NCBI GenBank assembly: GCA_000002435.2
Contig: CM018792.1
From: Giardia intestinalis
Taxonomy: Eukaryota
Direction: 5' to 3' (one strand)
Length of the DNA stretch: 64,000 bases
In this document: positions 10,977 to 49,000 of the stretch, piece by piece
How the letters are laid out: each line of letters begins with the position of its first letter
Position numbering within the stretch: the stretch's first letter is position 1
The notes under the pieces: model-generated
Database searches by the model: none
What the model was told of the DNA's origin: nothing
Seen by the model: the letters and a program-made list of their open reading frames with translations, nothing else
Program-made: the position numbers and the translations under genes

Positions 10977-13508
10977 ATGAGCACTGCCGACGTTTATGGG
11001 TTGGCCTTCGGGTCTATACTTTTAATTAGCGTATCCATATCGTGCGGTGCTCTTGTCATTTTTGGTGGATTGAGGCATGCATTCCCGGAGATTTTTCAGC
11101 CACAGCGGCACAGACAGCACACCCTTAGCAGATTTCCTTGGTTCATCGACGTCTTTATTCGTCCTCTGGAGGAGTTTGCGAGGAGGGGAGATCTAGTGCT
11201 TCTTTATATCCTGCATCAGACTGCAGTTATCATCATGCTCTTCATTCTCTCGTCATTCAGTGTGCTGGTCTTGATTCCCGTATACTGGCGTGGCACCATG
11301 CAGGGGAGCCTGGGCTCCGGGTGGTCATCCATAACTATCTCTCATCTGGAAGGAAATTGCTTGGCGTATCTCTTCCCGTTAGTAGCAACGTTCATCTATA
11401 TGTTTATAATTCTGTTCTATTATACCCAACTCAGAAGCTTCTGCGTGCGCATTCAGCAGAGCCTACCACCTCCACGCTACGTACTTCTTCTTCACCTTCC
11501 CAAAGAGCTTCGCTACATACAACCGCTTCAGACAGCGTGCCAGCTAATGTACGGAGAAACATTGCGCTGGATAATACCCGTAACGCAGCGTTTTCATACT
11601 GCTGTTAGATGCATCAAAAAGCAAGACCGCCTAGTACACCGAGCAAGCGTAAAGCTCTGCGAATGCGAATGGTACAGTTGCGCCTTGCAAAAGGAAATGC
11701 AGATGATGACAACGCGCGGGCCGCTGCTTAACAAGCTACTTAATATGAAGCGGATACGAGCCGCTAAAAGATTTGGACGGAGCAAATATTCCTTTAGCCA
11801 GCTTCTCCATAAGTTGGATGGAGCGCAAGAAGAGCTGGACCTCATACTTTTGGGGCAGCCAATTAGCTCCGCGCAATATCAACTGCGCATGGAGCAGATA
11901 GAGTACCCTGACTTTTCTGACTACCAGTGCCTACGTGCACTAGGCAGTGATGCGTGTGAGAGGAATGATTGGCATGAGCACCCTTCAGAGGATTCTACCA
12001 ATTTAACTCAGTGGTTCCGAGGGCTTAAGGTCATGTCTGCAGTGCTTGAATTTCAAGATCCAGCTGCTGCGCACAAGGCGGCACAGATGTCTTTCTCTTC
12101 TAACGCATTTAAGCCTAGGGTCCTCGCTGTCTCTCCTCAGCATGTTGTGTGGAGTAACCTTCAAGTACCCGAAACGCTTCGTGCAGCCTTTCAGGTCCTA
12201 TATGTTCTGCTAGTGTTAATATACCTAACCATATACTTCTTTCCGTCCACAACTCTCGTCAATCTTGTTAACAAACATTCAGCCACATGGTTTCAACAGA
12301 TTTACGGAGGCATGTGCTCACCCCAAAGAAACAGGTGCAAGGCCCAGCCATCCATCAGTGGCGAGACAAGGAGCTCGATTGGCAGCACGACTTGCTATGC
12401 GTGTTACAAAATTACAAGCTACATGATAGTCTTTTTGCCGACGGTGATAACGACTAGCCTCAATTCGTTGCTTCCTGTAGTAATTGGTAGCCTTGCACAG
12501 CTCTGCAGGCCAATGTTTATAACCTCATTACGGATAGTTGAATACCAGACGATATTTTTGTTTCTCATCATCATTCAAGGAGCTCTTCAGATTGTGCTAC
12601 CGTCACTGCTGTCCAATGCTGGCGTTCTCGACTACTCCATCCTCTTGACTTATTCTCTTAATCAGATCCTCAGCCAGATTGGACGCAACATGCCCAATCA
12701 AGTGTTTTCTTTTCTTACATACGTGTGTACTAAGTACTTTGTATTCAGCATACTTTCTCTTTTCCGGCCAGTGGACATTTTGACAACGATATTTAACAAA
12801 ATTGTATATCAGCGCTCGTATTGGCCCATCCGTTCTTATAGGGCAGCCGCACGCTTTAACCTAGCAAAGCTCTGCGCATATAGCTCACACATGTTATGCA
12901 TAGGCTTTCTTTTTGGCATAATAGCTCCGATATCTCTTCCAGTGGTAACTATGGCATACACACTGATGGCAGCAGTTGATAGGCACAATATTCTGTATGT
13001 ACATCCAGTCGATGATGAAAGCTGGTTATCACCAGCTCCAAACATTCTCTTTTTCCTCCAAAACACTATCTTTGTCGGGTTCACCTTCATGCTTGTTGCA
13101 ACTGGTGCATACTATCTCCTTCTGACGGGATGGGTGCGAATAGTATGCTTCTCAGCTAATGTGCTCTTCCTCGCTATCTCGATATTTGTCAAAAAGACCC
13201 ACGACAGGAAGTACAAGCCAAATCCCAGGTATACGGGAGCGTGGAAGGAGACTGGAGTGGATAGAAAGAGCATATTTCAGGTTGATGAGAGCGTTTGGAA
13301 AGTGGACAGCTACCGCGGAAGATTGGAGTGGGGTAGAGTGGACAAGTTTAATGCGATAGGGGAAGAACGGCGTAGATTGGATATAGCAACCAGCGCTAAT
13401 GAAGTAGGGACACTGAGAGTTGGCGAGCACTCACTCAGTACCTTTGAGCGACTAGCTTGTTACACCAGAGTGCACACCATGGCAAGGGAGAGTGCTGACA
13501 ATCAGTGA
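10977..13508 (+). CDS. OSCA/TMEM63/CSC1-like (DUF221, RSN1_7TM) putative mechano/osmosensitive Ca-permeable channel, paralog 1 (843 aa).
   Basis: N-terminal TM directly at the start. Conserved family motifs: VVWSNLQVP (OSCA VFWSNLAIP); IFLFLIIIQGALQIVL (RYYIFNLVNVFL); GRNMPNQVFSFLTYVCTKYFVFSIL (IPMKATFFITYIMVDGW); GFLFGIIAPISLPVVTMAYTLMAAVDRHNILYVH (GLVYAPVTPMLLPFILVFFALAYIVYRHQIINVY). Clear paralog of 36552..40055. Confidence 0.7.
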   Translation: MSTADVYGLAFGSILLISVSISCGALVIFGGLRHAFPEIFQPQRHRQHTLSRFPWFIDVFIRPLEEFARRGDLVLLYILHQTAVIIMLFILSSFSVLVLIPVYWRGTMQGSLGSGWSSITISHLEGNCLAYLFPLVATFIYMFIILFYYTQLRSFCVRIQQSLPPPRYVLLLHLPKELRYIQPLQTACQLMYGETLRWIIPVTQRFHTAVRCIKKQDRLVHRASVKLCECEWYSCALQKEMQMMTTRGPLLNKLLNMKRIRAAKRFGRSKYSFSQLLHKLDGAQEELDLILLGQPISSAQYQLRMEQIEYPDFSDYQCLRALGSDACERNDWHEHPSEDSTNLTQWFRGLKVMSAVLEFQDPAAAHKAAQMSFSSNAFKPRVLAVSPQHVVWSNLQVPETLRAAFQVLYVLLVLIYLTIYFFPSTTLVNLVNKHSATWFQQIYGGMCSPQRNRCKAQPSISGETRSSIGSTTCYACYKITSYMIVFLPTVITTSLNSLLPVVIGSLAQLCRPMFITSLRIVEYQTIFLFLIIIQGALQIVLPSLLSNAGVLDYSILLTYSLNQILSQIGRNMPNQVFSFLTYVCTKYFVFSILSLFRPVDILTTIFNKIVYQRSYWPIRSYRAAARFNLAKLCAYSSHMLCIGFLFGIIAPISLPVVTMAYTLMAAVDRHNILYVHPVDDESWLSPAPNILFFLQNTIFVGFTFMLVATGAYYLLLTGWVRIVCFSANVLFLAISIFVKKTHDRKYKPNPRYTGAWKETGVDRKSIFQVDESVWKVDSYRGRLEWGRVDKFNAIGEERRRLDIATSANEVGTLRVGEHSLSTFERLACYTRVHTMARESADNQ

Positions 13509-14077
13509 ATGAAATCGGTAATAGACAATCCAAACTGATTCATGGTTGCAGATCCCAGTGAGGCGCATTGGGAAGAAGGATTGCGAGATTTTTTGGTGAG
13601 GATGGAGCTTAATTTGTTAGCAGGTCTGCTAGCCCCACTGGAGGCGGCGAATAAAGCTGCTGCGCCGTTTGCGAGATTGCATACTGACTTCTCCTTTTCT
13701 TGAACTAACCGCACAGACCTACCGCAGGCTGTGCAGTGAAGTAAAGCGTAATCTGGTCTAGGATGTTTGTGTGTAATTCTGCGTCCTAGGGAAATCCTAG
13801 TGGAGACTCGCGGCCCAGGAGAGACTATCTCTATACTGTCTAAGTCAATGCTATGGCCACAAAGCGTGCATACCAGTGGAAGGGTGGAATCAACGTTTCC
13901 ACCTACAGCATTCTCTGCAGCACGCATTAGCTCTGCTGAATAGGTGGTTGACGTCTTTAGAACATGCAGCGATAGCGTGGCAAGATGCTGGGCCTTCGCT
14001 TCTTCAAGGGCAGGGTTTGATAAGTCTTCTTCGGTCATAACTAACTTGCAAAAACAAGTTTTTGACTGCTGTACCAC
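13502..14077 (-). CDS. Hypothetical zinc-ribbon protein (two CxxC pairs about 42 aa apart), possibly Rpr2/Rpp21-like. The 3' end overlaps the convergent OSCA-like gene by 7 bp.
   Basis: CTLCGH...HCTACGRS preceded by a helical region. The assignment to the Rpr2 family is a guess from motif spacing only. Confidence 0.35.
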   Translation of the reverse strand: MVQQSKTCFCKLVMTEEDLSNPALEEAKAQHLATLSLHVLKTSTTYSAELMRAAENAVGGNVDSTLPLVCTLCGHSIDLDSIEIVSPGPRVSTRISLGRRITHKHPRPDYALLHCTACGRSVRLVQEKEKSVCNLANGAAALFAASSGASRPANKLSSILTKKSRNPSSQCASLGSATMNQFGLSITDFIH

Positions 14078-21978: not shown

Positions 21979-23204
21979 GCTTGCGCAAAGTCCTTCCACC
22001 ACTGACCCAAGCCGACCCCTCGCAAGATCCTTAGCGGAGTTGCGTCCGAGATGTGTGCCTGCGTTGCTGTCCAGGTGCATGTGCCGGCCCTGGTGCTTCC
22101 CACAAGCTTGCGAGCATCGAGCTGGCCGCTACCGAACCGTATCAGAAGTCAGCACCAGGATGTAGTCCCATCAGTCAGGCTCTGCAGGCTCCCAGAGCTA
22201 CGCATCAAAAGGCCGTTCTTCTTTGGTTGTGCAGCGTGGGGAGATGCACCGAACTACCACACCCTCTCCGTGTGGCGTGGTTTACGACGGGGGACGGGGT
22301 CCCTGTGCTCATGTCTATCTGCCCAGGACGAGTCGCAGCCCGGGTTGACAATGACAAGCGAGCATCGCCCGGCTCCTTGTCAGCGGGTGGGAGATCCCGC
22401 CACCCTAGTACCCACAGCAACGGGTGCCGATCACTGGCAGAGGGACACGACACCCAGGCTCCCGTTCCTTCCACTGATGGTAGCCCACTATGAAGAGCCC
22501 TTTGTCGCCTGCACCAACAACCTCAGGCACTGTGGGTCAGAGCGCCTCCATAGTGGACAGCGGTAGCACTATGATGATCTGGGGTGACAGGAGTCCCGGT
22601 CTATCAACTCAGGAGACAGCACGCTTTGGGCAATGCTTCCCTCCTGTCCAGATCTGGGAGGACTGGCTGCCTTCTGAGCCCACCTGGCACCTTGTCAGGT
22701 GATGGAGTGTCTTAAAGTATTCATTACAAAAGATCAGAAATAGCGCCATGCATTCCCAATAGACCAGAACGTCTCCTAGGCTACTCTATGCTGATTCGCA
22801 CCTTTCATGGACCCTAGCGATCACTGTAATCTTCTCTCGGGATCCCGCAAGGGACTGTCCTTGAGTGCGATTCCCCCACGACAGCCGGGAGTCGCAGACA
22901 TAATCCAAAGGGATGAGAGTACTACAGAGGCTGAGAGGAGAGCGCCGATGCACAGGGGTCCGCAGAGACCCGGTTCGTACAGGGAAGGCGTGGAGGCTGG
23001 CTCTCCAGGGATGTAGAGCCACCAGGAAAGGAGCTGGCAGTGGGGCTTAGGCGCAGCAGAGGCACCCGATCCGTCCTCTGATTGGCCGCGAGGCAGTAGG
23101 CGCATGGGGCGGCATCACCGCTTGTTTTTGGATTTTCTGCTTCCCTGCGCGTTGTGCAGGGGTCCGCAGTGGGCTGAGTATCACAGGCTACACATAGTAG
23201 ATGC

Positions 23205-23219
23205 GTTTACTACCTAAGT
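23205..23219 (-). terminator. VSP extended polyadenylation signal ACTTAGGTAGTAAAC
   Basis: Matches the conserved VSP 3' element ACTYAGRTAGTRAAY directly after the stop. Confidence 0.6.
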
Positions 23220-23221
23220 AC

Positions 23222-25465
23222 CTACGCCTTCCCTCTGCAGATGAACCACCAGCAGAGGAAGCCGACGAGGCCGGCCACAATGACAACCGCCGCGACAGAG
23301 ATCCCTGCTATGGCACCGGTAGAAAGGCCGCTCTTATTCGTGCTTCCCCCGGTACTTTCACCGTTCATGAGGTAGCAGAGAACGGAGCCACTACCAGCCG
23401 ATGGAGGGGCGCAGCTAGCGCAGTTGGCGACGCCGGTGATGGATCCCCCGTCGCTCTTGTCGCATGCTATACACTTTTCTTTGGACGGGTAGTACCCTGC
23501 AGCGCACACCGTGCACTTGGTGGCGTCGTTCGCATTGCACTCGGAGCACTCAGTGGCGCAGGGAACACACTTCTTAGTGTTACCGCCAGTCTTAGCATAT
23601 CCAGCCTTACACGTGTCGCACTGGTCCTGGCTGGTGCACGTCTTACATCCGGCCGAGCAAGTGATGAGCGCGCCGTTATTCAGCTTGTACCCGTCGGCCG
23701 GAGTCTGACAGGCATCGCTCGCTTCTGCTGCGGCTAAGCAGACGCTCTTTCCGGGGAACTTGGTCGTCTCATAGCAGCCCCCGTTCATACGAAGAAGCCC
23801 GTTGGCGCATTTGTCACAGACACCAGTCCCTTTGGTAGTGCACGTAATAGCCTTTCCGGCCGCCGCCGAGCAGACTCCGTTCTGTGGAAACTGGCCGGCT
23901 TCCTTGCACTTGGAGCAGTAGGCCGTGCCATCGACCGTCAGCTCGCACTTCTCGCAGTTGTTAGCATTTGGCTCGCATCCTGGTTTGCACGTCCCCGTGT
24001 TGCCCTCTCCTTCGTAGCTGAGGGCCTTCTTAGGCTCACAGCTCGTACACCCGTTGGAGTTCCCGTTCGCGCACGTCTTGCACGAGGTATCGCACTTGGC
24101 ACAGGCGGTTTCTTTCTTGTAGTATCCGTCCTTGCAGGTCTCGCACTGTCCTTGCCCGTTGCACAGGAGGCAGTTCTCGACCTCGCACTTCTTGCAGGCC
24201 TTCTTGCCCCCCTCGTTGGTGCCCGCGTAGTAGCCTCCCAGATCTCCGCACGCATCGATGCACTGGCCCGTGGGCGTGAGGGCCTTAGTGCCCTCGCACT
24301 CTGTGCACACCTCCTTGCTTGTCTTCGGCTCACTGCACGTCTTGCAGCCGGGGGTGTTGCACGGCGCCGCAGGGGGGTCGGACTTCTTCATGCACCCGGT
24401 GCCGGCCTCCTCGGGAACGTAGCCCTCAACGCACTCACAAACGCCAGAGGTCTTTTCCTCGTTGGAGTTCAAGGGGCAGCTTTCAACGCACCCCTTCTTG
24501 TTTGGCTGGACCTTCTTCTGGTTTTCGCACGTCTTGCAGGCGACTGCTCCATCGGCGCCCTTCTCGCACGTCGCGCATCCATTGGAGGTCCCCTCGGCGC
24601 ACGCCTTGCACGTCTTCGGCTCAGTGTCGTCGGCGTAGTGGGTGCTTTGATTCTTGCACTCAGTTTCGGTGACGCACGTGCCAGTGTCGCTGCCATTATC
24701 CTTCTTCAGGTACGGCTTGTCGTCCTTACAGGAGGTGCACTTCGCAGCCTCGGTCTTACAGGTCTTGCAACCAGGATCACACGCCTCACAGGTTTTGGTG
24801 CCGCCATTTTTCACGAAGAACCCTTCGGTGCCGGTGCACTCTTCTTCTGTCACGCAGGAGGTGGCTGAATCTGTAGCCGTCTTCAGATACTTACCTTCTT
24901 GGCACGCAGTGCATGTGGCAGCCTTAGTGCCACTAGCTGATAGTTGCTCTGGTTTCTCACAGGTAGCGCACCCAGCCACCCCCGTGTATATCTTATCGCC
25001 AGTAAGTGTTACGCCCGTCGCGTCTCCGCACGAAACAACAGAGTCGTGGGCGTCGTCTGTATCTGCCGGCGGGACAAAGTACTTATTTCCAGCGACAGCC
25101 TCTGTGCACTTACCAGCATCTGCCGCTTGACACATGGCATTGCCAGGGGGTTTTGCTCGTTCATAGCACCCGCCCTTGTACATGAAGGAGTTGCCGTTAC
25201 ATCCTGTACATTTTCCGCCTGCGTGTGTCTTACATACTGCTGTATCAGACGACACATCTGTGCATACCCCGTTGACAGGAGCGCGATCAGCGGGATCTGC
25301 CTTGCATTGAGAGCAATACAATTTACCATCAATCAGAACGTTGCATGCCTCATCGGCACAATTGGTAGTTTGATCTGCACAGGTAGCCGTTCCAGCTTTT
25401 TCTGCTATCTGTGCCGTCCATACAAACTGAAGGATTACCCCCGCGAGAACAAATCTACAGAACAT
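23222..25465 (-). CDS. vsp: Variant-specific surface protein (VSP), 747 aa, copy A.
   Basis: Signal peptide MFCRFVLAGVILQFVWTAQIA, dozens of CxxC motifs, GGCY motifs, and a C-terminal TM plus invariant CRGKA tail (GLVGFLCWWFICRGKA). Confidence 0.93.
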   Translation of the reverse strand: MFCRFVLAGVILQFVWTAQIAEKAGTATCADQTTNCADEACNVLIDGKLYCSQCKADPADRAPVNGVCTDVSSDTAVCKTHAGGKCTGCNGNSFMYKGGCYERAKPPGNAMCQAADAGKCTEAVAGNKYFVPPADTDDAHDSVVSCGDATGVTLTGDKIYTGVAGCATCEKPEQLSASGTKAATCTACQEGKYLKTATDSATSCVTEEECTGTEGFFVKNGGTKTCEACDPGCKTCKTEAAKCTSCKDDKPYLKKDNGSDTGTCVTETECKNQSTHYADDTEPKTCKACAEGTSNGCATCEKGADGAVACKTCENQKKVQPNKKGCVESCPLNSNEEKTSGVCECVEGYVPEEAGTGCMKKSDPPAAPCNTPGCKTCSEPKTSKEVCTECEGTKALTPTGQCIDACGDLGGYYAGTNEGGKKACKKCEVENCLLCNGQGQCETCKDGYYKKETACAKCDTSCKTCANGNSNGCTSCEPKKALSYEGEGNTGTCKPGCEPNANNCEKCELTVDGTAYCSKCKEAGQFPQNGVCSAAAGKAITCTTKGTGVCDKCANGLLRMNGGCYETTKFPGKSVCLAAAEASDACQTPADGYKLNNGALITCSAGCKTCTSQDQCDTCKAGYAKTGGNTKKCVPCATECSECNANDATKCTVCAAGYYPSKEKCIACDKSDGGSITGVANCASCAPPSAGSGSVLCYLMNGESTGGSTNKSGLSTGAIAGISVAAVVIVAGLVGFLCWWFICRGKA

Positions 25466-26474
25466 TGGGGTCAGCCGGTTACTAGGAGACGGACAGAACT
25501 ATTAATACATTATTATCAATCTGTGTGATACACAGTAGAGTGTAATACTGGGCACACTTCTGAACGACGTCACGTGAGTGATGAGAACGCCATCCTGTCA
25601 TTCGCGGAGGGCCTCTCATTCTCCCTCGTTATAGACCGTGGCAACAGAGACACAACAGGCAGCTCGTCCGTCTCCGTAAGCATTCCAGGGAGTCCTGCCT
25701 GTCTGTACGAGGAGGTTTACTCTTCCACCAAGGACGGTTTCCGGCTGCTTCCGGTACATCAGTCGTGCCTGGACCGCTAGTCTGTTGACCGCTCGGGATT
25801 TCAGATATGAAGGCTTGGATGTGTCCAGGTTCTGGTGGCGGTGATGGAGTATTCCACGTGGGTTTTTGCAGGGGCGGGTCTTTCTGAAGCATACCGCAGG
25901 CAGATCTGCGATACACTGACCCACTACCATTGACGGGTGCTCTTGCGCTAGTCTTGTATCTGGTTCGCTGATGATCCCCCCTAGACGACATCTTCCGCCA
26001 TCTCTCGGAGAAGCGCGGTCTCAGACCAACCTCCAGTGGAACAACTCATCAGTTCCGCCTGTGTGGCGGGCTTCAGGCTTACCTGCAGGCGTAATCCAGA
26101 AATTTCACGAGTGGGTCTCGTCATTCCTGGCCAGTTCAGAGACGAGGGTTGGTCGTTAATGATATAATAGGGATCTCCCTTCACTTGTATACCAGGAGTC
26201 TTTTGCGTCTCTCAGTCGCTCCGCAGGGGTGTGCTCAGGCTGAGTATGCACGCCGGTCCTTTCGGGGTTCAGGCCTTCTCGTGGACTCTCTGCTCTATCA
26301 GTGGCGCCTCTCCTTGGTCTGCCGCCTTGGTGGGTGTAACTCTGGTCACTGTCCTTTTTTAGATGCTCCCGTCTGTCAGGGGCCGTCATCGGGCTCTCCG
26401 CTGGCTGGGCCTCTCAGTGTCCGGGCAGCTGTGGCTCGAGTCAGGGCTCCCACGGTCGCGGTCACTTGGGTCTC

Positions 26475-26600
26475 AGTGGGTCAGCTGGTGGGTGAGGCGG
26501 GGTTGGTGGGTGAGGCTGGAGGGCTCTGGTGGGGGCTGAGGCGGGGGGTGTTGTATGTGCCTCTGGATCCGGTGGGCCAGTGGGGTGGTGGGTGATCCCC
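26475..26600. repeat. G-rich tract (GGTGGGTGAGGC-like units, runs of G3-7) about 1 kb upstream of the VSP inside the IR arm, with potential G-quadruplex formation. Mirrored at 30595..30720.
   Basis: ggtgggtgaggcggggttggtgggtgaggctggagggctctggtgggggctgaggcggggggtg... A diverged second copy of the adjoining about 45-bp motif lies at 26960-27010. Confidence 0.45.
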
Positions 26601-27729
26601 TCTCTGTTTGCCAAGGTGGTTGCGTCTGATCCCCAGCCTTCGTTGCACTCCTGAGACAGAGGCACCGACGATCGTGTCGTGTCCCCTGACTGAGCGCCTC
26701 CCTTGGCCCCTGCATGTCTCGGGCAGTACTGCTTCTCTGTTTGACTAGTACGTGAGTGTTGAGGCAGGCCATCGCAGCCTCTCCTGTTGCTCGCTGGTGC
26801 TCTGTGCGGGTCTGCTGAGCCCCTGGCATGCCCTGTCCAGTGCCTCGACGGTAGTTCACCTCGGGCCAGCAGGGGTGTGGATGAGCCTGTGGATGGGATG
26901 GGGTGCTCTCAGGCCTCTAGTGTGATGGCCCTCGAAGACTGGCATGGTGGGGACCGGGTGGGCGGTGTTGTATGTGTCCCTGGTCCGGTGGGCCATGTCG
27001 GGTGATCGCAGCTGTGGTGACTGGAGGCTGTCTATCTGTGACCCATCCCTCTGTGGACTCGGGAGTGCCCTCCGCCCAGGCAACAGTGGTGCTGCTGGGG
27101 CCCTCGCCTGCGGGCGCTGTCCAAAATCTCGCGAGTAAATTCCCGCTCAATTTTTGGCGATGTCCGGAGACGAGGGTTGGTCACGGGCCGTAACGATAAT
27201 CACAGCGGTTGTAAGGAGGAGCTATCTGCGTTCCTCGGCTGTTCCGTGGGCGTGCGCACAGCTGGACCTGAAGCGTCGAAGAGCCCGCGAGGACCCGATC
27301 CGCATTATGAATGCAAGATCGTACCTCCGGGGCCCCCAGAGAGCAATCGTGAGTCTCTACTCGGGGGACCACTCCGAAGACGTTTACTCTCTCAGCAGGA
27401 CACACGTGCTGGCTCTGTGGCCAACCGTGTGAGAGCGCCAAGCAACTAACCGAGCACCTGAGAGAAGCAAACGATGACAGACACAGAGTGCTGGGCGACG
27501 ACAAGTTGATCATTCCGGCCCAGTACCGAACCGGACAGCTGCCATGCTCATCCACCAAGGTGCACGCATGATCGCGAGCATCGAGCAGGCTGGGACTGGG
27601 GTCGCGCTCCCCGCTATCAAGGGCCTGAACGCCCTGGTGGGAAGCCCCAGAAGACTCAAGCAACACAGTAGAGCAGGCCCAGAGTAAGGCAGACCCAGAC
27701 CCCGAGAAGGCGAGACGCCGGATAGCAAA

Positions 27730-29690: not shown

Positions 29691-31729
29691 TCCATCCCCG
29701 GGACCCGACGACAACGACCGAGAAGGGGCAAAGACTGGACACACAGCCGAGTTGAATCCCAACCAGAAGAGAAAGCCCGCTAGCTGCTGCTGATCTGTAT
29801 GGACAGTATTGAGAATGACAACAAAGACCAGAGCTTCACTCACCGTGAAGGGAGAACAAGGAGAGGCGCTCTAACAGGCCAGCGAACCTGCAGGACGGCT
29901 TGATCTCTGAAAGAACCGATGTGCACATCCAGTCTGAGTGTACTCCTGTAGAATAGCCGAGGAACGCAGATAGCTCCTCCTTACAACCGCTGTGATTATC
30001 GTTACGGCCCGTGACCAACCCTCGTCTCCGGACATCGCCAAAAATTGAGCGGGAATTTACTCGCGAGATTTTGGACAGCGCCCGCAGGCGAGGGCCCCAG
30101 CAGCACCACTGTTGCCTGGGCGGAGGGCACTCCCGAGTCCACAGAGGGATGGGTCACAGATAGACAGCCTCCAGTCACCACAGCTGCGATCACCCGACAT
30201 GGCCCACCGGACCAGGGACACATACAACACCGCCCACCCGGTCCCCACCATGCCAGTCTTCGAGGGCCATCACACTAGAGGCCTGAGAGCACCCCATCCC
30301 ATCCACAGGCTCATCCACACCCCTGCTGGCCCGAGGTGAACTACCGTCGAGGCACTGGACAGGGCATGCCAGGGGCTCAGCAGACCCGCACAGAGCACCA
30401 GCGAGCAACAGGAGAGGCTGCGATGGCCTGCCTCAACACTCACGTACTAGTCAAACAGAGAAGCAGTACTGCCCGAGACATGCAGGGGCCAAGGGAGGCG
30501 CTCAGTCAGGGGACACGACACGATCGTCGGTGCCTCTGTCTCAGGAGTGCAACGAAGGCTGGGGATCAGACGCAACCACCTTGGCAAACAGAGAGGGGAT
30601 CACCCACCACCCCACTGGCCCACCGGATCCAGAGGCACATACAACACCCCCCGCCTCAGCCCCCACCAGAGCCCTCCAGCCTCACCCACCAACCCCGCCT
30701 CACCCACCAGCTGACCCACTGAGACCCAAGTGACCGCGACCGTGGGAGCCCTGACTCGAGCCACAGCTGCCCGGACACTGAGAGGCCCAGCCAGCGGAGA
30801 GCCCGATGACGGCCCCTGACAGACGGGAGCATCTAAAAAAGGACAGTGACCAGAGTTACACCCACCAAGGCGGCAGACCAAGGAGAGGCGCCACTGATAG
30901 AGCAGAGAGTCCACGAGAAGGCCTGAACCCCGAAAGGACCGGCGTGCATACTCAGCCTGAGCACACCCCTGCGGAGCGACTGAGAGACGCAAAAGACTCC
31001 TGGTATACAAGTGAAGGGAGATCCCTATTATATCATTAACGACCAACCCTCGTCTCTGAACTGGCCAGGAATGACGAGACCCACTCGTGAAATTTCTGGA
31101 TTACGCCTGCAGGTAAGCCTGAAGCCCGCCACACAGGCGGAACTGATGAGTTGTTCCACTGGAGGTTGGTCTGAGACCGCGCTTCTCCGAGAGATGGCGG
31201 AAGATGTCGTCTAGGGGGGATCATCAGCGAACCAGATACAAGACTAGCGCAAGAGCACCCGTCAATGGTAGTGGGTCAGTGTATCGCAGATCTGCCTGCG
31301 GTATGCTTCAGAAAGACCCGCCCCTGCAAAAACCCACGTGGAATACTCCATCACCGCCACCAGAACCTGGACACATCCAAGCCTTCATATCTGAAATCCC
31401 GAGCGGTCAACAGACTAGCGGTCCAGGCACGACTGATGTACCGGAAGCAGCCGGAAACCGTCCTTGGTGGAAGAGTAAACCTCCTCGTACAGACAGGCAG
31501 GACTCCCTGGAATGCTTACGGAGACGGACGAGCTGCCTGTTGTGTCTCTGTTGCCACGGTCTATAACGAGGGAGAATGAGAGGCCCTCCGCGAATGACAG
31601 GATGGCGTTCTCATCACTCACGTGACGTCGTTCAGAAGTGTGCCCAGTATTACACTCTACTGTGTATCACACAGATTGATAATAATGTATTAATAGTTCT
31701 GTCCGTCTCCTAGTAACCGGCTGACCCCA

Positions 31730-33973
31730 ATGTTCTGTAGATTTGTTCTCGCGGGGGTAATCCTTCAGTTTGTATGGACGGCACAGATAGCAGAAAAAGC
31801 TGGAACGGCTACCTGTGCAGATCAAACTACCAATTGTGCCGATGAGGCATGCAACGTTCTGATTGATGGTAAATTGTATTGCTCTCAATGCAAGGCAGAT
31901 CCCGCTGATCGCGCTCCTGTCAACGGGGTATGCACAGATGTGTCGTCTGATACAGCAGTATGTAAGACACACGCAGGCGGAAAATGTACAGGATGTAACG
32001 GCAACTCCTTCATGTACAAGGGCGGGTGCTATGAACGAGCAAAACCCCCTGGCAATGCCATGTGTCAAGCGGCAGATGCTGGTAAGTGCACAGAGGCTGT
32101 CGCTGGAAATAAGTACTTTGTCCCGCCGGCAGATACAGACGACGCCCACGACTCTGTTGTTTCGTGCGGAGACGCGACGGGCGTAACACTTACTGGCGAT
32201 AAGATATACACGGGGGTGGCTGGGTGCGCTACCTGTGAGAAACCAGAGCAACTATCAGCTAGTGGCACTAAGGCTGCCACATGCACTGCGTGCCAAGAAG
32301 GTAAGTATCTGAAGACGGCTACAGATTCAGCCACCTCCTGCGTGACAGAAGAAGAGTGCACCGGCACCGAAGGGTTCTTCGTGAAAAATGGCGGCACCAA
32401 AACCTGTGAGGCGTGTGATCCTGGTTGCAAGACCTGTAAGACCGAGGCTGCGAAGTGCACCTCCTGTAAGGACGACAAGCCGTACCTGAAGAAGGATAAT
32501 GGCAGCGACACTGGCACGTGCGTCACCGAAACTGAGTGCAAGAATCAAAGCACCCACTACGCCGACGACACTGAGCCGAAGACGTGCAAGGCGTGCGCCG
32601 AGGGGACCTCCAATGGATGCGCGACGTGCGAGAAGGGCGCCGATGGAGCAGTCGCCTGCAAGACGTGCGAAAACCAGAAGAAGGTCCAGCCAAACAAGAA
32701 GGGGTGCGTTGAAAGCTGCCCCTTGAACTCCAACGAGGAAAAGACCTCTGGCGTTTGTGAGTGCGTTGAGGGCTACGTTCCCGAGGAGGCCGGCACCGGG
32801 TGCATGAAGAAGTCCGACCCCCCTGCGGCGCCGTGCAACACCCCCGGCTGCAAGACGTGCAGTGAGCCGAAGACAAGCAAGGAGGTGTGCACAGAGTGCG
32901 AGGGCACTAAGGCCCTCACGCCCACGGGCCAGTGCATCGATGCGTGCGGAGATCTGGGAGGCTACTACGCGGGCACCAACGAGGGGGGCAAGAAGGCCTG
33001 CAAGAAGTGCGAGGTCGAGAACTGCCTCCTGTGCAACGGGCAAGGACAGTGCGAGACCTGCAAGGACGGATACTACAAGAAAGAAACCGCCTGTGCCAAG
33101 TGCGATACCTCGTGCAAGACGTGCGCGAACGGGAACTCCAACGGGTGTACGAGCTGTGAGCCTAAGAAGGCCCTCAGCTACGAAGGAGAGGGCAACACGG
33201 GGACGTGCAAACCAGGATGCGAGCCAAATGCTAACAACTGCGAGAAGTGCGAGCTGACGGTCGATGGCACGGCCTACTGCTCCAAGTGCAAGGAAGCCGG
33301 CCAGTTTCCACAGAACGGAGTCTGCTCGGCGGCGGCCGGAAAGGCTATTACGTGCACTACCAAAGGGACTGGTGTCTGTGACAAATGCGCCAACGGGCTT
33401 CTTCGTATGAACGGGGGCTGCTATGAGACGACCAAGTTCCCCGGAAAGAGCGTCTGCTTAGCCGCAGCAGAAGCGAGCGATGCCTGTCAGACTCCGGCCG
33501 ACGGGTACAAGCTGAATAACGGCGCGCTCATCACTTGCTCGGCCGGATGTAAGACGTGCACCAGCCAGGACCAGTGCGACACGTGTAAGGCTGGATATGC
33601 TAAGACTGGCGGTAACACTAAGAAGTGTGTTCCCTGCGCCACTGAGTGCTCCGAGTGCAATGCGAACGACGCCACCAAGTGCACGGTGTGCGCTGCAGGG
33701 TACTACCCGTCCAAAGAAAAGTGTATAGCATGCGACAAGAGCGACGGGGGATCCATCACCGGCGTCGCCAACTGCGCTAGCTGCGCCCCTCCATCGGCTG
33801 GTAGTGGCTCCGTTCTCTGCTACCTCATGAACGGTGAAAGTACCGGGGGAAGCACGAATAAGAGCGGCCTTTCTACCGGTGCCATAGCAGGGATCTCTGT
33901 CGCGGCGGTTGTCATTGTGGCCGGCCTCGTCGGCTTCCTCTGCTGGTGGTTCATCTGCAGAGGGAAGGCGTAG
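31730..33973 (+). CDS. vsp: Variant-specific surface protein (VSP), 747 aa, copy B. Its protein is identical to copy A, and the two are oriented head-to-head.
   Basis: Identical translation to 23222..25465(-). Has the CRGKA tail, with ACTTAGGTAGTAAAC at 33976..33990. Confidence 0.93.
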   Translation: MFCRFVLAGVILQFVWTAQIAEKAGTATCADQTTNCADEACNVLIDGKLYCSQCKADPADRAPVNGVCTDVSSDTAVCKTHAGGKCTGCNGNSFMYKGGCYERAKPPGNAMCQAADAGKCTEAVAGNKYFVPPADTDDAHDSVVSCGDATGVTLTGDKIYTGVAGCATCEKPEQLSASGTKAATCTACQEGKYLKTATDSATSCVTEEECTGTEGFFVKNGGTKTCEACDPGCKTCKTEAAKCTSCKDDKPYLKKDNGSDTGTCVTETECKNQSTHYADDTEPKTCKACAEGTSNGCATCEKGADGAVACKTCENQKKVQPNKKGCVESCPLNSNEEKTSGVCECVEGYVPEEAGTGCMKKSDPPAAPCNTPGCKTCSEPKTSKEVCTECEGTKALTPTGQCIDACGDLGGYYAGTNEGGKKACKKCEVENCLLCNGQGQCETCKDGYYKKETACAKCDTSCKTCANGNSNGCTSCEPKKALSYEGEGNTGTCKPGCEPNANNCEKCELTVDGTAYCSKCKEAGQFPQNGVCSAAAGKAITCTTKGTGVCDKCANGLLRMNGGCYETTKFPGKSVCLAAAEASDACQTPADGYKLNNGALITCSAGCKTCTSQDQCDTCKAGYAKTGGNTKKCVPCATECSECNANDATKCTVCAAGYYPSKEKCIACDKSDGGSITGVANCASCAPPSAGSGSVLCYLMNGESTGGSTNKSGLSTGAIAGISVAAVVIVAGLVGFLCWWFICRGKA

Positions 33974-33975
33974 GT

Positions 33976-33990
33976 ACTTAGGTAGTAAAC
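33976..33990 (+). terminator. VSP extended polyadenylation signal ACTTAGGTAGTAAAC
   Basis: Conserved VSP 3' element 3 nt after the stop. Confidence 0.6.
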
Positions 33991-35855
33991 GCATCTACTA
34001 TGTGTAGCCTGTGATACTCAGCCCACTGCGGACCCCTGCACAACGCGCAGGGAAGCAGAAAATCCAAAAACAAGCGGTGATGCCGCCCCATGCGCCTACT
34101 GCCTCGCGGCCAATCAGAGGACGGATCGGGTGCCTCTGCTGCGCCTAAGCCCCACTGCCAGCTCCTTTCCTGGTGGCTCTACATCCCTGGAGAGCCAGCC
34201 TCCACGCCTTCCCTGTACGAACCGGGTCTCTGCGGACCCCTGTGCATCGGCGCTCTCCTCTCAGCCTCTGTAGTACTCTCATCCCTTTGGATTATGTCTG
34301 CGACTCCCGGCTGTCGTGGGGGAATCGCACTCAAGGACAGTCCCTTGCGGGATCCCGAGAGAAGATTACAGTGATCGCTAGGGTCCATGAAAGGTGCGAA
34401 TCAGCATAGAGTAGCCTAGGAGACGTTCTGGTCTATTGGGAATGCATGGCGCTATTTCTGATCTTTTGTAATGAATACTTTAAGACACTCCATCACCTGA
34501 CAAGGTGCCAGGTGGGCTCAGAAGGCAGCCAGTCCTCCCAGATCTGGACAGGAGGGAAGCATTGCCCAAAGCGTGCTGTCTCCTGAGTTGATAGACCGGG
34601 ACTCCTGTCACCCCAGATCATCATAGTGCTACCGCTGTCCACTATGGAGGCGCTCTGACCCACAGTGCCTGAGGTTGTTGGTGCAGGCGACAAAGGGCTC
34701 TTCATAGTGGGCTACCATCAGTGGAAGGAACGGGAGCCTGGGTGTCGTGTCCCTCTGCCAGTGATCGGCACCCGTTGCTGTGGGTACTAGGGTGGCGGGA
34801 TCTCCCACCCGCTGACAAGGAGCCGGGCGATGCTCGCTTGTCATTGTCAACCCGGGCTGCGACTCGTCCTGGGCAGATAGACATGAGCACAGGGACCCCG
34901 TCCCCCGTCGTAAACCACGCCACACGGAGAGGGTGTGGTAGTTCGGTGCATCTCCCCACGCTGCACAACCAAAGAAGAACGGCCTTTTGATGCGTAGCTC
35001 TGGGAGCCTGCAGAGCCTGACTGATGGGACTACATCCTGGTGCTGACTTCTGATACGGTTCGGTAGCGGCCAGCTCGATGCTCGCAAGCTTGTGGGAAGC
35101 ACCAGGGCCGGCACATGCACCTGGACAGCAACGCAGGCACACATCTCGGACGCAACTCCGCTAAGGATCTTGCGAGGGGTCGGCTTGGGTCAGTGGTGGA
35201 AGGACTTTGCGCAAGCAGCTCTGTGGCCTGTTGGTCGCATTCTCCTCTGCCGTAAAGGACACCTACCAATGATCGTTACGAACTGGATGACCCCCGTCTG
35301 TCTTTGAGACTCACCAGTGTGCACAGTTGTCGATGAGGCGGAGTCGTCCACCAGTCACGCCCTGCTGGGCTAGTCACTGTCACCGGTGGCTAAGGAGCAG
35401 CAGGAGCCGTCTGCCTCCGCACGGAAGGCCTCGAGGGGTCGTGTTACGCTGGAAGCCGGTCACTGTTCCACATATCCGCTACCTAATTATGGGCAGGAGT
35501 ATCGGACACGAGAAGAGCTACGACAAGGACTCGCTGGGGTAAGCGTGCTCTGCAGCTCCTTTGGATGCCCCAGTCCCTTACGGCTCAGGCACTGGGGCCT
35601 CAATGCATCTGCCCCTTACTGGGTTCTCCACCGGCTAGTGCGACCTAGGCAGACACAGAGGAGTCCCGGCTCCTGTTCTGTGCAAGCTCGTCAGACCGGC
35701 CTGGTCGTGAGGTTTGGAGACACCTAGGTCGAGTACTCCCAGGTCCCTACTCCAGACAGGCAATCTTGTGGTGGGATCATTCACTCTAGAGGGTAGTCCA
35801 GAGCTACCAACAAAATAAACCCGATTATCCAATAACTTCCACCTTTTGAAAAATC

Positions 35856-36551: not shown

Positions 36552-39500
36552 ATGGCAAGCACAGAAATCAAAGGGTCATACACTGCTACAGGAGAGGTAA
36601 ATTTTGAAACAACGCTCACTGCCACAACGCTCATACAGCTAGCAGTGACAGCAGGGGTACTTCTTATTTTCTCCCTATTCAAGTATTTACTCCCAATGGT
36701 ATTTTGTCCGTTCTACATGCGGCGGCAAAGGAAATTTAGCATATGGTTTCTAGACGTATTTTGCCAGCCCATTTCGCAATACGCTAGATGTGGAAATGTG
36801 GCTGCCATATTTGTTTTGTATCAGACTATGGTGATTTCCTTATTCGGTATCATGTCTCTCTTTGGCTTAACAATCCTCATACCTGTCTATGTGGTGGGCG
36901 TAGACCAAGACTTTAACACAGACTATCGTACAGGCTGGTCGAAGATGTCTCTTACACACGTGGAAGCAGGCTCCTATGCCATTTTAGTTCCGACGGTCGT
37001 TGCGACAATCTACACATTCATGATGATGGAGTTCTATGATCAGTTCCACATCGTGTATATCTATTTCCGTCAACGTGCTCTACGTCGCTCGGCACCACAG
37101 AACTTCGTTGTCATGCTGGATCAGCTCCCCTCAGGCATAAGAACATATGGAGACCTTGCTAAGTCTCTTGAAGGCGTCTTTCAGCAGGGTGTCATACGCT
37201 ATATAATTCCCGTTCCCGAGCATTCTCTGAGCTTAACGTTCAAATACAAGAAGCTGCTAAAGCTAATTCTAAATCAGCATAAGACAGATCGGTTGGTGAA
37301 TTACTATGTAACGGAATTGGAGGCCTACATGAACAAAATAGGATTGCACGGACTTACATTGGCCGAAATAGACGATCCGACCGTGAAACAGCGTGTCCAG
37401 AAGATGCAGAATAAGATATCTAAGTCGCAAATGGCACTGATTCCTTTTAAGACTAAATCACGTCAACTAAAGTTAGAAATACTGGCGTATGCCCATGAAA
37501 TGAATATTGACCTCTCCCACCTTATCGGAATCAAGCATCTACCGCCGCCAATGCCTGCCAATGTTACATCTTTCAACAAGCTTACTACATGTACGCGGAT
37601 GACTGCTGAAGACGTTATTGCAGAACGGGATAACTTTGACATCGAACTTAATCTACCTAGCATTCAGACTCTTTCACGAGTGGGCTCCAACCTTACTGCC
37701 TTTCAAGGCCCTAGCAGGACTATGTTAACCAGGGATGAAGAGTCTCAAGATAGAAGCATTCCAGAGTCCAGTGACAGATCTGTTTCACAATTTAACAATA
37801 TATATGCGTCACTACCTACCTCAACGATGCAGCTCTCTAATCCTTCTAATGTGTTGATCTCTCCAAAGATTTCGCACGACCTGCGTGTCAACAATTTAAT
37901 TGGCCCACTGATAGGCATGGGTTCAGTTGATGGAATTCCAAGCGCTCCTCGAGTCGTCTCAGCAGGCAGGCAAGCTACCGAACCATTTCATCTCAGTACA
38001 ATCTATAGTGCACAAGAAGGAAGCTTTCGTGAGGCAGAAAGCGTGTCTGCAGGAGCCACGATGAAACCAGCTAGCTCTTCTAGCAGAACAGAGTATGCGT
38101 TATCCACACAACGACCCATCAGTGCAGAAGAGCGATATCGGGAGCAGCAGGCAACATTAGGCGAGGTCTCCACGAGGAGCTTAAGGCCAGTGCTTACAAA
38201 GTATCTCCTGGGTATACCCAAGAGTGTTGCAGAGGTAATAAGAACCACGTTTCCTGACCACGGGCTCGGGAAAATAGATGCTGCTACAATAAAAAGCAAG
38301 ACACGGCAGCAGCACAGGGCCCACATCGATACTCCGATCGGCCGGACCGCATTTGTGGTTTTCAACTCACAGATCGAAGCGACCCTTTGCTCTAATTCGC
38401 TACTTTATATGAACGCAACCGAGCCAAAGGTCGGATCTGCACCAGAGTATAATCAAATAATCTGGGGGAACACAGCATACTCAAAGAGGTTTAGATTAGT
38501 GATGCGCTCAATTTTCCTAGTTCTTCTCCTATCTCTTTTCATTGGCTACTTTGTTCCTCAGACATATATCTTAAACTTGGTTGCAAATAACAGTGAGCAA
38601 TGGTTTAATTCTTTCTATATTAGAATGTGTAAGCCAGGCCAAGGGCGCTACAAGTGTGCTCAGACGGTCTCTCTCACAAAAGGAACTGTAAGCGACGTTG
38701 GGGGAGTTGTCTGTTACATTTGCTATAAAACAGCGTCTATGAGCATTACCCTTCTTCCTGTCATAGTCCAAGTTATCTTTATGGCCCTCCTGCCCTTAGT
38801 TATAAAGTACCTTTCTATGCTTGCCTTTTGCACTAGCAACACAGAAAAAGCCAATCTCGAATACAGAATTAACTTTCTTTTTCTCATTTTTATTGTAGGA
38901 ATAATTCAGATCATGCTGACCTCCACCTTCAACGAGTATGGAACTATAGATTTTGAACAGCTAACAGGCCTAACGTTGAACGGACTGGTGGCCAATATTG
39001 GCCGCAATTTTCCTGCACAAATCTTTACATTTATTAACTACTTAATTACCAAGTATTTCCTTTTCTCTGTCCTCACGCTTCTACGGATTCCCGATTTGCT
39101 GCTGGGTCTGCTCAAGCTTATGATTACCAAAGACCCTATCGCTAAGAGGCGAATAGCTTACTACACAGGATTTCCTTACCTTAAACAATTAGCATATGGC
39201 TCTCACATGACGGTGATAGGCTTTATGTACTCAATCGTCGCACCTATATCCACGGTGTTTGTCTTTATCATTTACACCGTGTTTTCAATAGTCAACCGCT
39301 TTAATATTCTCTATGTGTATAGACCTCTCTCAGATTCCGAGATGTCCGCTGCCACAGACATTATTAAGTATGTTAGCGGAGATACTTATTTGGGATTTTT
39401 GCTAATGATGATAGCGACGATTGCATTTCTTATCGTTCTCAACGAAACCATCACGCTTGTCTGTGCGTACTTCCTCGCGACAATCATGATCATCGCGATA

Positions 39501-45982: not shown

Positions 45983-46052
45983 CCAGGCCACAGTGGTTGC
46001 TTTTCAAAAAAACCGGCCAGGAAACTTTTGGCTAAATCTGCACTTTAGGCTT

Positions 46053-49000
46053 ATGGCATCCAAGAAGGTGGTTCCTCAGACGTCTGACCTACTCAGAGAG
46101 ATTAGTACTCTGGACCTTCAGAAGCAGCAGGCTTCTACAGAGCTAATGTCTTACACAACGTTGCTCGCTTCTCCCGCTGAGGCCCCTGTGGTTGTCGTAG
46201 ACATGGCGAACTTTATCAACTTCTCTAACTTAGGTGACAAGCTCACGGTTAAGCATCCATATTCCAACATCCCTGGAGACGTTAGGATGCAGCAAAAGTC
46301 TGGAACAAAAGGCCCCAGCTCATCGGGCCCATCTTCATCCCCTACAAATACTACCCAATTGATATTCCCGCCATTCGTTCAGTTTCAAAGTAACCTACGT
46401 ACTCTTTCGCTTATTTCTGGAGACGTCCCACCTCCCAGTTCCGCCCCTTCCATGGTTTCAGAAGCTGCTTTCATTTCTAGCTATGTGGTAGATACCTTTA
46501 CTAAACTATATAGCGAGCTTCTTGTCTATGATCCACAGGAGTCTCAGCTTCCTATCCCAGCGCAACTTCCCTACTCCTTGGCCTCATTCAGGGTGTACAC
46601 ACTGGTACCCTTTTTCCTCTCTCGCTTCAAACACTATTCTGTCTCAGTATATTTTCAAGGTAAAGACCCTTCGCGAGACTTGCTGGTTGCGTCTCCTCTG
46701 GAGACTCTGGTACCAGGCGTCAAAGAAAAGAGCTCTACCCTATTCACAGCGTTGAATATTGACAAGAATCCTCTATACATTCCAGTGACTAATTACACTA
46801 GGATAGAGCAAGGGTCGGAATCTGGAACTACGGGTACTGCTGATTCTACACCTACCAATGACGCAGAATCTTATTACTACCATCCCCATCTTGTGGATGT
46901 AGAGGCTGCTGGTGTAAAATATAGATCTACTGCCAATTGGGCTAGTGTACTTGCCATGGGGATGGACTGTATGGCTGTTAACCCGTACAGTTTCCTCCTT
47001 ACTCCGTTCTCATCGTTCGTGCAGATCTCAATTCCGTTCGATAAATCTTTTACTCCTGACGCCTTGCAGCTCTTCTTGCAATGTACAGATAAAGAGGTGT
47101 CTCCGAATATGGTGACGCTTATTGAGTTTCCTACGTTGTTTGGTGTTATACGCGATAGGATCCGGAAGCACTTCTTACTATCTGAGAACCAGGGCGCTGG
47201 TGTTCGAAGTCCTCTTCTTCATAGCCTTATAGACGACCTTAACAAGATAGACTCACCTAGCCCGAGCCAGGATTCACACAGAGGTTCATACAGAGAGTCC
47301 ATGCACAAAGACGATAGCTCTGTAGACGAGAATACAAAGCGTTACAGTATGAATTTAGGAGGCGACTCGTTCCAAGCTACCTCTAGTGTCAAAGCAACCT
47401 CTCTAACAGTGAAGGATACCTTTGCTTCTCTTTATGAGCCAAAACCTGGGGTTGAATCAACGTTTCTACTGGATCTCTTTGAGTCTGTCATTCAGGACGA
47501 AGCACGTCTACAAACGCCTCTTTCTCTCGGTGTCATAGATGTCCTTTCGATGGAAAAAGCTGAGTATAAGCCCAAGGAACTCTTTAGCAAACCGCCCTCA
47601 CGCTTCCTAGCAGATGAAAACATCCCTGCGCGTTCTGCCGATTCGCGACCGACAATTCTTTCTCGCAATGCATGCGCATCAGGAGCAGCCCCACGTTCTC
47701 TGCGCTCTCTCCTCAATTCCTCTGATTCATCCATGAACAGTTCTATGATGTCAGCAGACTCATCACCCTTTGATGCTTTAGAAGAATATAATCCAGACCT
47801 TATATTTGTCAAGCTTTGGGTGTCGGATCCCGTGCTGGCTGTGATCCTAAGTGACCAGTTTACAGACCATGAAGAGGACTTTCTACAAACATATGCAACT
47901 GAGCGCCAGCTAAAGCTCTATAGAATGCTTGAAAAGAAGCATCCGAGAAAGTACAATAACGGACGCTATAATGTGGGGTCCACAGAAGGAGCATCGGCTT
48001 CCGGTCCAATTATTATTGGAATGACAGCAACCGATATGTCTACAACTCAGGGTGGAATGGGCCGCGGCAGCTATCTTGGTGAAGCTGGTCATAATTGCTC
48101 ACTTCGTAATTCTGGAATCGGTGGAAACAGTGGAATCCCTGTCTCTCTGCAAAACAATAGTGTCATGCTTCCCCATCCTACACACGGGCCAACAGCATCT
48201 ATCTACACAGGGAAGACATCTCGGACGAGGATGACTGCCAAGGAAGCTGCCGAGCGCCGGCGCCTCCTTAAGTTAGAGCGTATGCGTTCCAAGATCTATG
48301 AGTGTAACCAGAACTATCTCCCTGGTAGAAAGCTTACCATGTATAAAGACTATGACCCAGCAAACTTTCCCCTTGGCAAACCAGAAGCCCCTTGGAACAG
48401 TGTAAACAAGGGCGAAACGGCCATAGACATACTTAAAGTCGACATGGCCACACTTAGAACAATGGATCGCAATGAGCTAACAGTCGCCTTGGATACCCAG
48501 GAAAAGATGATGAAAACGATTTCCTTGCTTCCGAGATTGAGGGAAGCTAGCGAAGCTAAGGCTAAGAGACTTCCAGACAAAAATAGTTCTGTTGGTAGTA
48601 GCATTATTGATAGAGAAGCATCTGCTCGTAGTGACAAACGGTGTACTCATCAAGAGTCAACGAAGGGACAACAACCCAACGATTGCCTGGCGCCTACTCC
48701 GAGACTTGGTGACAATCTTGCCAATTCTTCACAGGCTAATCCTTTGACAAGCCTCTTGGATGCTCCTGAGGTGCAAATAGGATCACGTATCGATGAAGAG
48801 GAAAAGCCGAAGAAGAGCAAGAAGAGTAAGTACATCCGCGGATATCGCGTGATAGATGAGACAGAAGCGTATGCTAACAAGAATCATGTCTATGAACAGG
48901 TTCATTGTGACGTGGGCTCAGAAGATTCTCTTTTCAACGACGATCAGCAGAGATCAACGGATATGAGCTACTGCGTTGTTCGACTTACAACCTTGCTGGA

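Follow-up and report, generated by a model that had tools for sequence, protein, structure and literature searches.

Two divergent OSCA/TMEM63/CSC1-family paralogs of Giardia intestinalis with a predicted four-cysteine extracellular loop

Does Giardia intestinalis encode members of the OSCA/TMEM63/CSC1 family, and could they work as tension-gated channels? The question is raised by a stretch of 64,000 nucleotides (nt) of contig CM018792.1 (assembly GCA_000002435.2), hereafter the window, in which a previous sequence-only reading had proposed that two long open reading frames (ORFs), P1 and P2, encode divergent paralogs of this family (Table 1). Both ORFs were confirmed at exactly the proposed coordinates, on the same (+) strand and 23,043 bases apart. 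BLASTP aligned the C-terminal channel domains of the two proteins with 35% identity over 381 amino acids (E 4e-64) and their N-terminal transmembrane (TM) bundles with 31% identity over 201 amino acids (E 1e-27), and the two are paralogs by this measure. No third gene of the family was found within the 64-kb window by tblastn with P1 and P2. Our reading, to which we give a probability of about 0.6, is that P1 and P2 are genuine, functional OSCA/TMEM63/CSC1 members of the TMEM16-like channel/scramblase superfamily, including the tension-gated pore predicted for them.

Family membership was first indicated by Pfam. The RSN1_7TM family (PF02714, formerly DUF221; cut-off 28.7 bits) matched P1 with 42.5 bits and P2 with 68.1 bits, and RSN1_TM (PF13967; cut-off 27 bits) matched residues 11-148 of P1 with 30.5 bits and residues 22-159 of P2 with 35.0 bits, lying N-terminal to the RSN1_7TM channel domain in both proteins. 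No match to Pfam Anoctamin, that is, to TMEM16/anoctamin proper, was found at E<=1 in P1 or P2. A profile made jointly from the orthologs of P1 and P2 (9 Giardia sequences, the Giardia profile below) matched in the PDB exclusively OSCA/TMEM63 family proteins (TMEM63A, 3.6e-11; TMEM63B, 1.7e-9; OSCA1.2, 1.3e-8; OSCA3.1, 6e-7). As a single sequence, P2 found the same proteins with phmmer (TMEM63B/TMEM63A, E 8e-10; OSCA3.1, 2e-7; OSCA1.2, 7e-5), while the single-sequence search of the PDB with P1 was non-significant (E 0.4). For the divergent P1 we regard the comparison of profiles as the decisive test. When five P1 orthologs were aligned with 14 canonical representatives from the protein library, hhalign gave a probability of 99.9% and an E value of 2e-31 over 610 colinear columns. 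The alignment covered residues 8-730 of P1, i.e. TM0 through TM10 with the cytosolic domain included, and paired the P1 segment 'SAVLEF...VSPQHVVWSNL' with the canonical 'AFVTF...APEPxDVxWxN'.

The predicted topology agreed with this assignment. Hydropathy plots of P1 and P2 showed three peaks before the cytosolic domain (in P1 at residues 3-33, 71-106 and 126-150) and a further seven to eight, the TM7-TM8 hairpin among them, on its C-terminal side, and the helices predicted in a low-confidence AlphaFold model followed a pattern compatible with 11 TM segments and a beta/alpha cytosolic domain. The hydropathy thus fits the 11-TM OSCA topology named by the sequence-only reading, in a 3 + 8 layout (TM0-TM10), a statement about topology only and not about packing. 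By sequence, both proteins show the domain order TM0-TM2, cytosolic domain, TM3-TM10. The motifs expected by that reading were found with some corrections. The C-terminal AP helix is present in both (APIS...DRHNILYVH in P1, APIS...NRFNILYVY in P2). The WSNL box before the first channel helix occurs in P1 (VVWSNL, residues 390-395) but not in P2, which has IIWGNT. The helix announced as FF.TY reads FSFLTYV in P1 and FTFINYL in P2, so that F.F.[TN]Y describes it better; OSCA1.2 has FFITYIMV. The blocks shared by both proteins are LP...LLP in TM4, F.F.[TN]Y followed by L[LF]R.P in TM6 and AP...R[HF]N.LYV in TM7-8, P1 itself having F.F.TY and LFRP in TM6 and APIS...DRHNILYV in TM7-8.

Membership had already been recorded elsewhere. 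P1 is 100% identical to XP_001705240.1/KAE8304493.1 and P2 to XP_001704562.1/KAE8304501.1, both of Giardia intestinalis WB, which assigns the window to the WB genome or to that of an identical isolate, and the corresponding locus tags in other isolates are DHA2_10943 and GSB_10943 for the P1 group and DHA2_92518 and GSB_92518 for the P2 group. It had been suggested that such proteins are usually labelled only as hypothetical. This holds for NCBI, where the entries read 'Transmembrane domain-containing protein' or 'Hypothetical protein', but not for UniProt. There, as in UniRef, the orthologs bear the name 'CSC1/OSCA1-like 7TM region domain-containing protein', and PF13967 and PF02714 domains are listed as precomputed. 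Because of these names and domains, the family identification is not new. A literature search found nothing linking Giardia to OSCA, TMEM63 or DUF221, save a TCDB study (PMC5868767), and a search by the gene numbers of P1 and P2 found no citing paper.

The TCDB study, by Medrano-Soto et al. in 2018, defined the 'CSC-like 2' (CSC-L2) family (PMC5868767). This family (TC 1.A.17.7; Giardia/Spironucleus) also comprises Giardia proteins of the anoctamin/TMC/CSC superfamily, and their lengths, 836 and 823 amino acids, are near that of P1. Their reported Pfam make-up is PHM7_cyt plus Anoctamin, as opposed to RSN1_TM plus RSN1_7TM in P1 and P2. We compared 1.A.17.7.1 with P1 and P2: the best BLASTP match had an E value of 0.34 over 30 amino acids, phmmer found none, and the profile aligned only 50 residues, with a marginal 0.3 bits. 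P1 and P2 being the published CSC-L2 proteins was rejected, 1.A.17.7.1 being without pairwise similarity to them and not encoded in the window. Since CSC-L2 (1.A.17.7.1, 1.A.17.7.5), a much more divergent group, is unrelated to P1 and P2 in pairwise comparison, the genome encodes at least three lineages of the TMEM16-like superfamily.

Several results weigh against the reading of P1 and P2 as functional, tension-gated family members. The third Pfam family that the sequence-only reading had named, PHM7_cyt (PF14703), did not join the other two above the curated cut-offs: it was not detected in P1, and in P2 it reached 22.3 bits, under the 27-bit cut-off, with a match confined to positions 111-174 of the 174 in the profile, its C-terminal third. 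Pairwise identity to canonical family members is only 15-21%. AlphaFold2 models were unusable, with a confidence (pLDDT) of 36.9 for full-length P1 from an alignment of 9 sequences and of 46.9 for the P2 channel domain from an alignment of 8. When the better of these (pLDDT 46.9) was compared with the PDB by Foldseek, no match at E<=0.001 was obtained, and in the resulting list, which is noise, OSCA1.1 had rank 15 with an E value of 5.6 and a TM-score of 0.21. In OSCA1.2, E531 of TM6b is a pore-facing acidic residue described as conserved across OSCA/TMEM63 (PMC6235563). It aligns with Ile592 in P1, and the matching TM6b stretch of P2 holds no acidic residue. Opposite L434 and L438, which belong to the neck of OSCA1.2, P1 has T492 and N496. 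Finally, lipid scrambling has also been reported for TMEM63B (PMC13013810). As to E531, several canonical library representatives are also without an acidic residue in the same columns, and it is therefore not a strict requirement of the family.

The low identity and the poor three-dimensional models could suggest that P1 and P2 are unrelated multi-pass proteins resembling OSCA/TMEM63 only through their hydrophobic composition. This explanation is effectively refuted by the occurrence of two separate Pfam domains above their gathering cut-offs in the correct order, by an hhalign match that extends into the soluble domain, and by the confinement of the PDB profile matches to a single family. 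Chance resemblance was likewise rejected, as the RSN1_7TM and RSN1_TM scores exceed the curated cut-offs in both proteins. The OSCA/TMEM63/CSC1 assignment made earlier is thus supported by Pfam, by the PDB profile matches, by hhalign colinearity and by hydropathy, and we infer the three-dimensional fold of P1 and P2 from their sequences.

The top-scoring relatives with solved structures were the animal CSC1-like proteins TMEM63A/B/C (PDB 8wua, 8grs, 8ehw, 8ehx). Their N-terminal TM1-TM2 and their TM4-TM8 align with the Giardia proteins, including the NY.I...LLR.P hinge of TM6 and the DRHN.Y.VY motif of TM8, and the channel core of P2 aligns with residues 460-652 of TMEM63A and residues 476-702 of TMEM63B. 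They differ in that identity is only about 20%, in that the Giardia proteins add a 25-residue four-cysteine insertion between TM3 and TM4, and in that the cytosolic loop of P2 is about 290 amino acids longer. TMEM63 proteins are reported to be monomeric and OSCA proteins dimeric. With plant OSCA1.2/CSC1, OSCA1.1 and OSCA3.1/ERD4 (PDB 6mgv, 6ijz, 8ymm, 5z1f), the domain order and the 11-TM layout are common, as are W-S-N-L ahead of TM3, FF.TY in TM6 and AP...RH.I..VY in TM7-8; the differences are the absence of E531 from both Giardia proteins and the replacement of L434/L438 by Thr/Asn in P1.

A search of the full library with the Giardia profile found 453 proteins at E<=1e-3, and 24 at E<=1e-30. 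A wide gap followed these top 24, the canonical OSCA/TMEM63 proteins beginning at E ~1e-22. A further homologue search with the Giardia alignment as query gave no additional sequences. Those proteins of the top group that carry a species name belong to Giardia muris, Hexamita inflata and Dysnectes brevis, so the group, in which P1 and P2 are included, is a Fornicata clade. These homologs (Giardia muris TNJ26916.1, Hexamita inflata CAL6079900.1 and CAL6103041.1, Dysnectes brevis EP00768_P004833) matched the Giardia profile with E values of 1e-238 to 1e-127, share the cysteine loop and are annotated only as 'Transmembrane domain-containing'. In the P2-type members the cytosolic loop is expanded to a varying extent, as in P2 itself. 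In a neighbor-joining tree a long stem set the fornicate clade apart from 12 canonical representatives, and P2 grouped with the G. muris protein; since internal support was weak, only these two features were taken from the tree.

One distinctive feature of the clade lies between TM3 and TM4. Going by the published OSCA topology, this loop would be extracellular. It measures about 50 amino acids in the clade, as compared with about 25, without cysteine, in 12 canonical representatives, and the cysteine segment of about 25 amino acids appeared as an insertion (gap) against the canonical profile in hhalign. The pattern is C-x6-9-C-x10-22-C-x2-C, in which the last pair forms a CxxC. All four cysteines are invariant in 9/9 Giardia sequences. 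Nearly all fornicate members have four, Dysnectes having three and the library protein P0065 two, and the insertion was also seen in the library relatives P0053-P0063. No CxxC was found there in 89 canonical representatives aligned with hmmalign, which aligned this loop poorly (median of 0 residues). From these alignments, the four-cysteine insertion appears to be a clade-specific feature of Fornicata.

P2 shares 48% identity over conserved columns with G. muris. P1 is on a long branch; of the proteins retrieved from beyond the G. intestinalis complex, none shares more than 32% identity with it and none is a clear P1 ortholog. P2 is thus the conservative copy, a clear ortholog being present in G. 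muris, and P1 the long-branch copy. Selection was measured between WB and assemblage B as the ratio of nonsynonymous to synonymous differences per site (pN/pS), with synonymous sites near saturation (pS 0.66-0.71). The overall pN/pS was 0.12 for P1 and 0.10 for P2, and over TM3-TM10 it was 0.10 and 0.045, respectively. The gene neighbours are kept in assemblage B contigs. Both genes are therefore under strong purifying selection, and the pN/pS values together with the conserved synteny point to functional genes. AGTRAAY poly(A) signals were absent within 60 nt past the stop codon of either gene.

These data bear on the idea that P1 might have degenerated into a paralog that does not conduct and that either assists P2 as its regulatory partner or has taken on a new function, which would leave P2 as the sole working channel. 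The long branch and low identity would fit this, as would the weaker Pfam scores of P1, its non-significant single-sequence PDB matches and its polar replacements at the neck positions of OSCA1.2. We consider it improbable, however, because purifying selection acts on the channel domain of P1 (pN/pS 0.10), because every family block is kept, as is the cysteine loop, and because P1 has its full length and aligns colinearly with canonical members. At its 3' end, P1 is met by a convergent 191-aa ORF (13502-14077, minus strand) without Pfam match that shares the last 7 bases of P1; it is probably a real conserved gene, because a 178-aa gene is called at that place in assemblage B contigs.

The OSCA1.2 pore is formed by TM3-TM7 (PMC6235563), and mechanical gating was described in work on the same protein (PMC6235560). 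In P1 the stretch of TM4 between the conserved prolines P488 and P500 (12438-12476) is unusually polar, with T489, T492, T493, S494, N496 and S497, of which N496 and S497 are invariant among assemblages. Since two of the polar residues occupy neck positions, conduction and gating may differ from those of OSCA1.2. The TM4 of P2 is hydrophobic, as in canonical channels. The polar TM4 of P1 also raises the question of whether P1 and P2, P1 being the likelier of the two, are not purely ion channels but scramble lipids under tension, be it as their main activity or as an additional one. The TMEM16 fold is common to the OSCA/TMEM63 family, TMEM63 proteins have been reported as mechanically activated scramblases (PMC13013810, PMC13332465), and, according to one report, single TM4 substitutions turn OSCA1.2 or TMEM63A into scramblases (PMC11534332). 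As there is no sequence feature diagnostic of scrambling, and as P2 has the TM4 of a canonical channel, we think this unlikely.

P2 is distinguished by its cytosolic TM2-TM3 loop, which has 483 amino acids, versus 250 in P1, 177-232 in 12 canonical representatives and 333-632 in P2-type relatives. The sequence-only reading had noticed a long, lineage-specific insertion at about residues 330-640. The enlarged loop is indeed there, but these limits overshoot: residues 586-640 are the ordinary PHM7_cyt end, and only residues 351-500 are poorly conserved. Among five Giardia assemblage orthologs, residues 301-350 (37452-37601) are 96% invariant, residues 501-600 are 68-86% invariant and residues 351-500 only 26-32%. 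In agreement with this, pN/pS reached 0.45 in residues 351-500 as compared with 0.04-0.08 in the other segments of P2. Ser, Thr, Pro, Asn, Gln and Gly make up 45% of residues 331-560. The extra segment thus has a fast-evolving core rich in these six residues (351-500), bordered by flanks that are conserved (301-350 and 501-585). Residues 301-350 exceed most of the TM core in conservation, and this suggests an element with a specific role in binding or regulation.

Instead of being osmosensors of the plasma membrane, P1 and P2 might resemble lysosomal TMEM63 or yeast Rsn1/Phm7 and act on internal membranes (endoplasmic reticulum, peripheral vacuoles or encystation vesicles), with a part in ion homeostasis or in late secretory traffic. 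In Pfam, RSN1_TM carries the description 'Late exocytosis, associated with Golgi transport', and TMEM63 roles 'from plasma membrane to lysosomes' are described in a 2026 review (PMC13494684). The cytosolic insertion of P2, large and partly conserved, and its C-terminal tail of 179 amino acids could hold sorting or docking signals. The CxxC cysteine loop, on the non-cytosolic side, suits an extracellular or a lumenal site alike and does not decide the matter. We regard a role on internal membranes as a possibility, though a rather doubtful one.

Table 1. Coordinates in the window of P1, P2 and their predicted parts
Feature	Coordinates	Strand	Description	Basis
P1	10977..13508	+	843-aa OSCA/TMEM63/CSC1-family protein; ortholog group 10943	ORF, Pfam, hhalign
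P1 TM0-TM2 bundle	11007..11420	+	Residues 11-148, with WFIDVF...GD cytosolic amphipathic segment	RSN1_TM
P1 cytosolic TM2-TM3 domain	11427..12167	+	Residues ~151-397	Colinear with canonical domain
P1 channel domain TM3-TM10	12168..13211	+	Residues ~398-745	RSN1_7TM (residues 485-676), hydropathy
P1 TM3-TM4 insertion, predicted extracellular	12312..12410	+	C447, C454, C473, C476	Alignment, hhalign gap
P2	36552..40055	+	1167-aa OSCA/TMEM63/CSC1-family protein; ortholog group 92518	ORF, Pfam, phmmer
P2 TM0-TM2 bundle	36615..37028	+	Residues 22-159	RSN1_TM, hydropathy
P2 extra cytosolic segment	37449..38306	+	Residues ~300-585	Alignment with P1/canonical, loop lengths
P2 C-terminal PHM7_cyt part	38307..38471	+	Residues 586-640	Pfam, 22.3 bits, sub-threshold
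P2 TM3-TM4 four-cysteine loop, predicted extracellular	38625..38729	+	C693, C702, C721, C724	Alignment
P2 channel-domain core TM4-TM8	38748..39344	+	Residues 733-931	RSN1_7TM

Other features were observed in the same window. Between P1 and P2 there is a perfect inverted repeat of 5,283 nt (21979-27261 and 29934-35216), whose arms are 100% complementary and separated by a spacer of 2,672 nt. Each arm carries one gene for a variant-specific surface protein of 747 amino acids (23222..25465 on the minus strand and 31730..33973 on the plus strand), in head-to-head orientation, and both proteins scored 470 bits against Pfam VSP. Downstream of P2, an ORF of 2163 amino acids (45993-52484, plus strand) has an assemblage B ortholog of 2151 amino acids, with no Pfam match recorded.

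How would P1 and P2 work if they are indeed mechanically gated members of the family? By analogy with the solved relatives, every subunit would have a separate pore, built from TM3-TM7. Tension in the membrane, or swelling or shrinkage under osmotic change, would move TM6 about a conserved Arg-Pro hinge and so open the pore, which would then pass cations, including Ca2+. The corresponding hinge motif, L[LF]R.P, was found in TM6 of both paralogs. More speculatively, the four-cysteine loop may cap the outer mouth of the pore, and the enlarged cytosolic loop of P2 may be a regulatory or docking module.

What could yet prove new, family membership being already in UniProt and Pfam, is the function of the two proteins as found by experiment, and the roles of the four-cysteine loop and of the cytosolic module of P2. 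A tentative proposal, which we hold to be possible but on balance not probable, is that they represent a Fornicata variant of the family in which a disulfide- or metal-binding four-cysteine cap adds sensitivity to redox state, zinc or luminal chemistry, that P1 and P2 have split functionally, and that they are the main mechano- and osmosensors of the cell. If this is true, P2 would be the conservative copy with a regulatory module, and P1 a fast-evolving copy whose polar TM4 groove makes it conduct or scramble differently. In a survey of 2013, neither MscS nor Piezo homologues were found in Giardia (PMC3681921), and OSCA and TMEM63 both go unmentioned in a review of protozoan ion channels from 2022. 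P1 and P2 are therefore obvious candidates for sensors of osmotic or mechanical stress. That they sense the osmotic, bile or pH shifts of encystation and excystation, as the sequence-only reading had imagined, is speculation. Sensing by these candidates would concern attachment, encystation and excystation, in an organism whose membrane physiology is little known.

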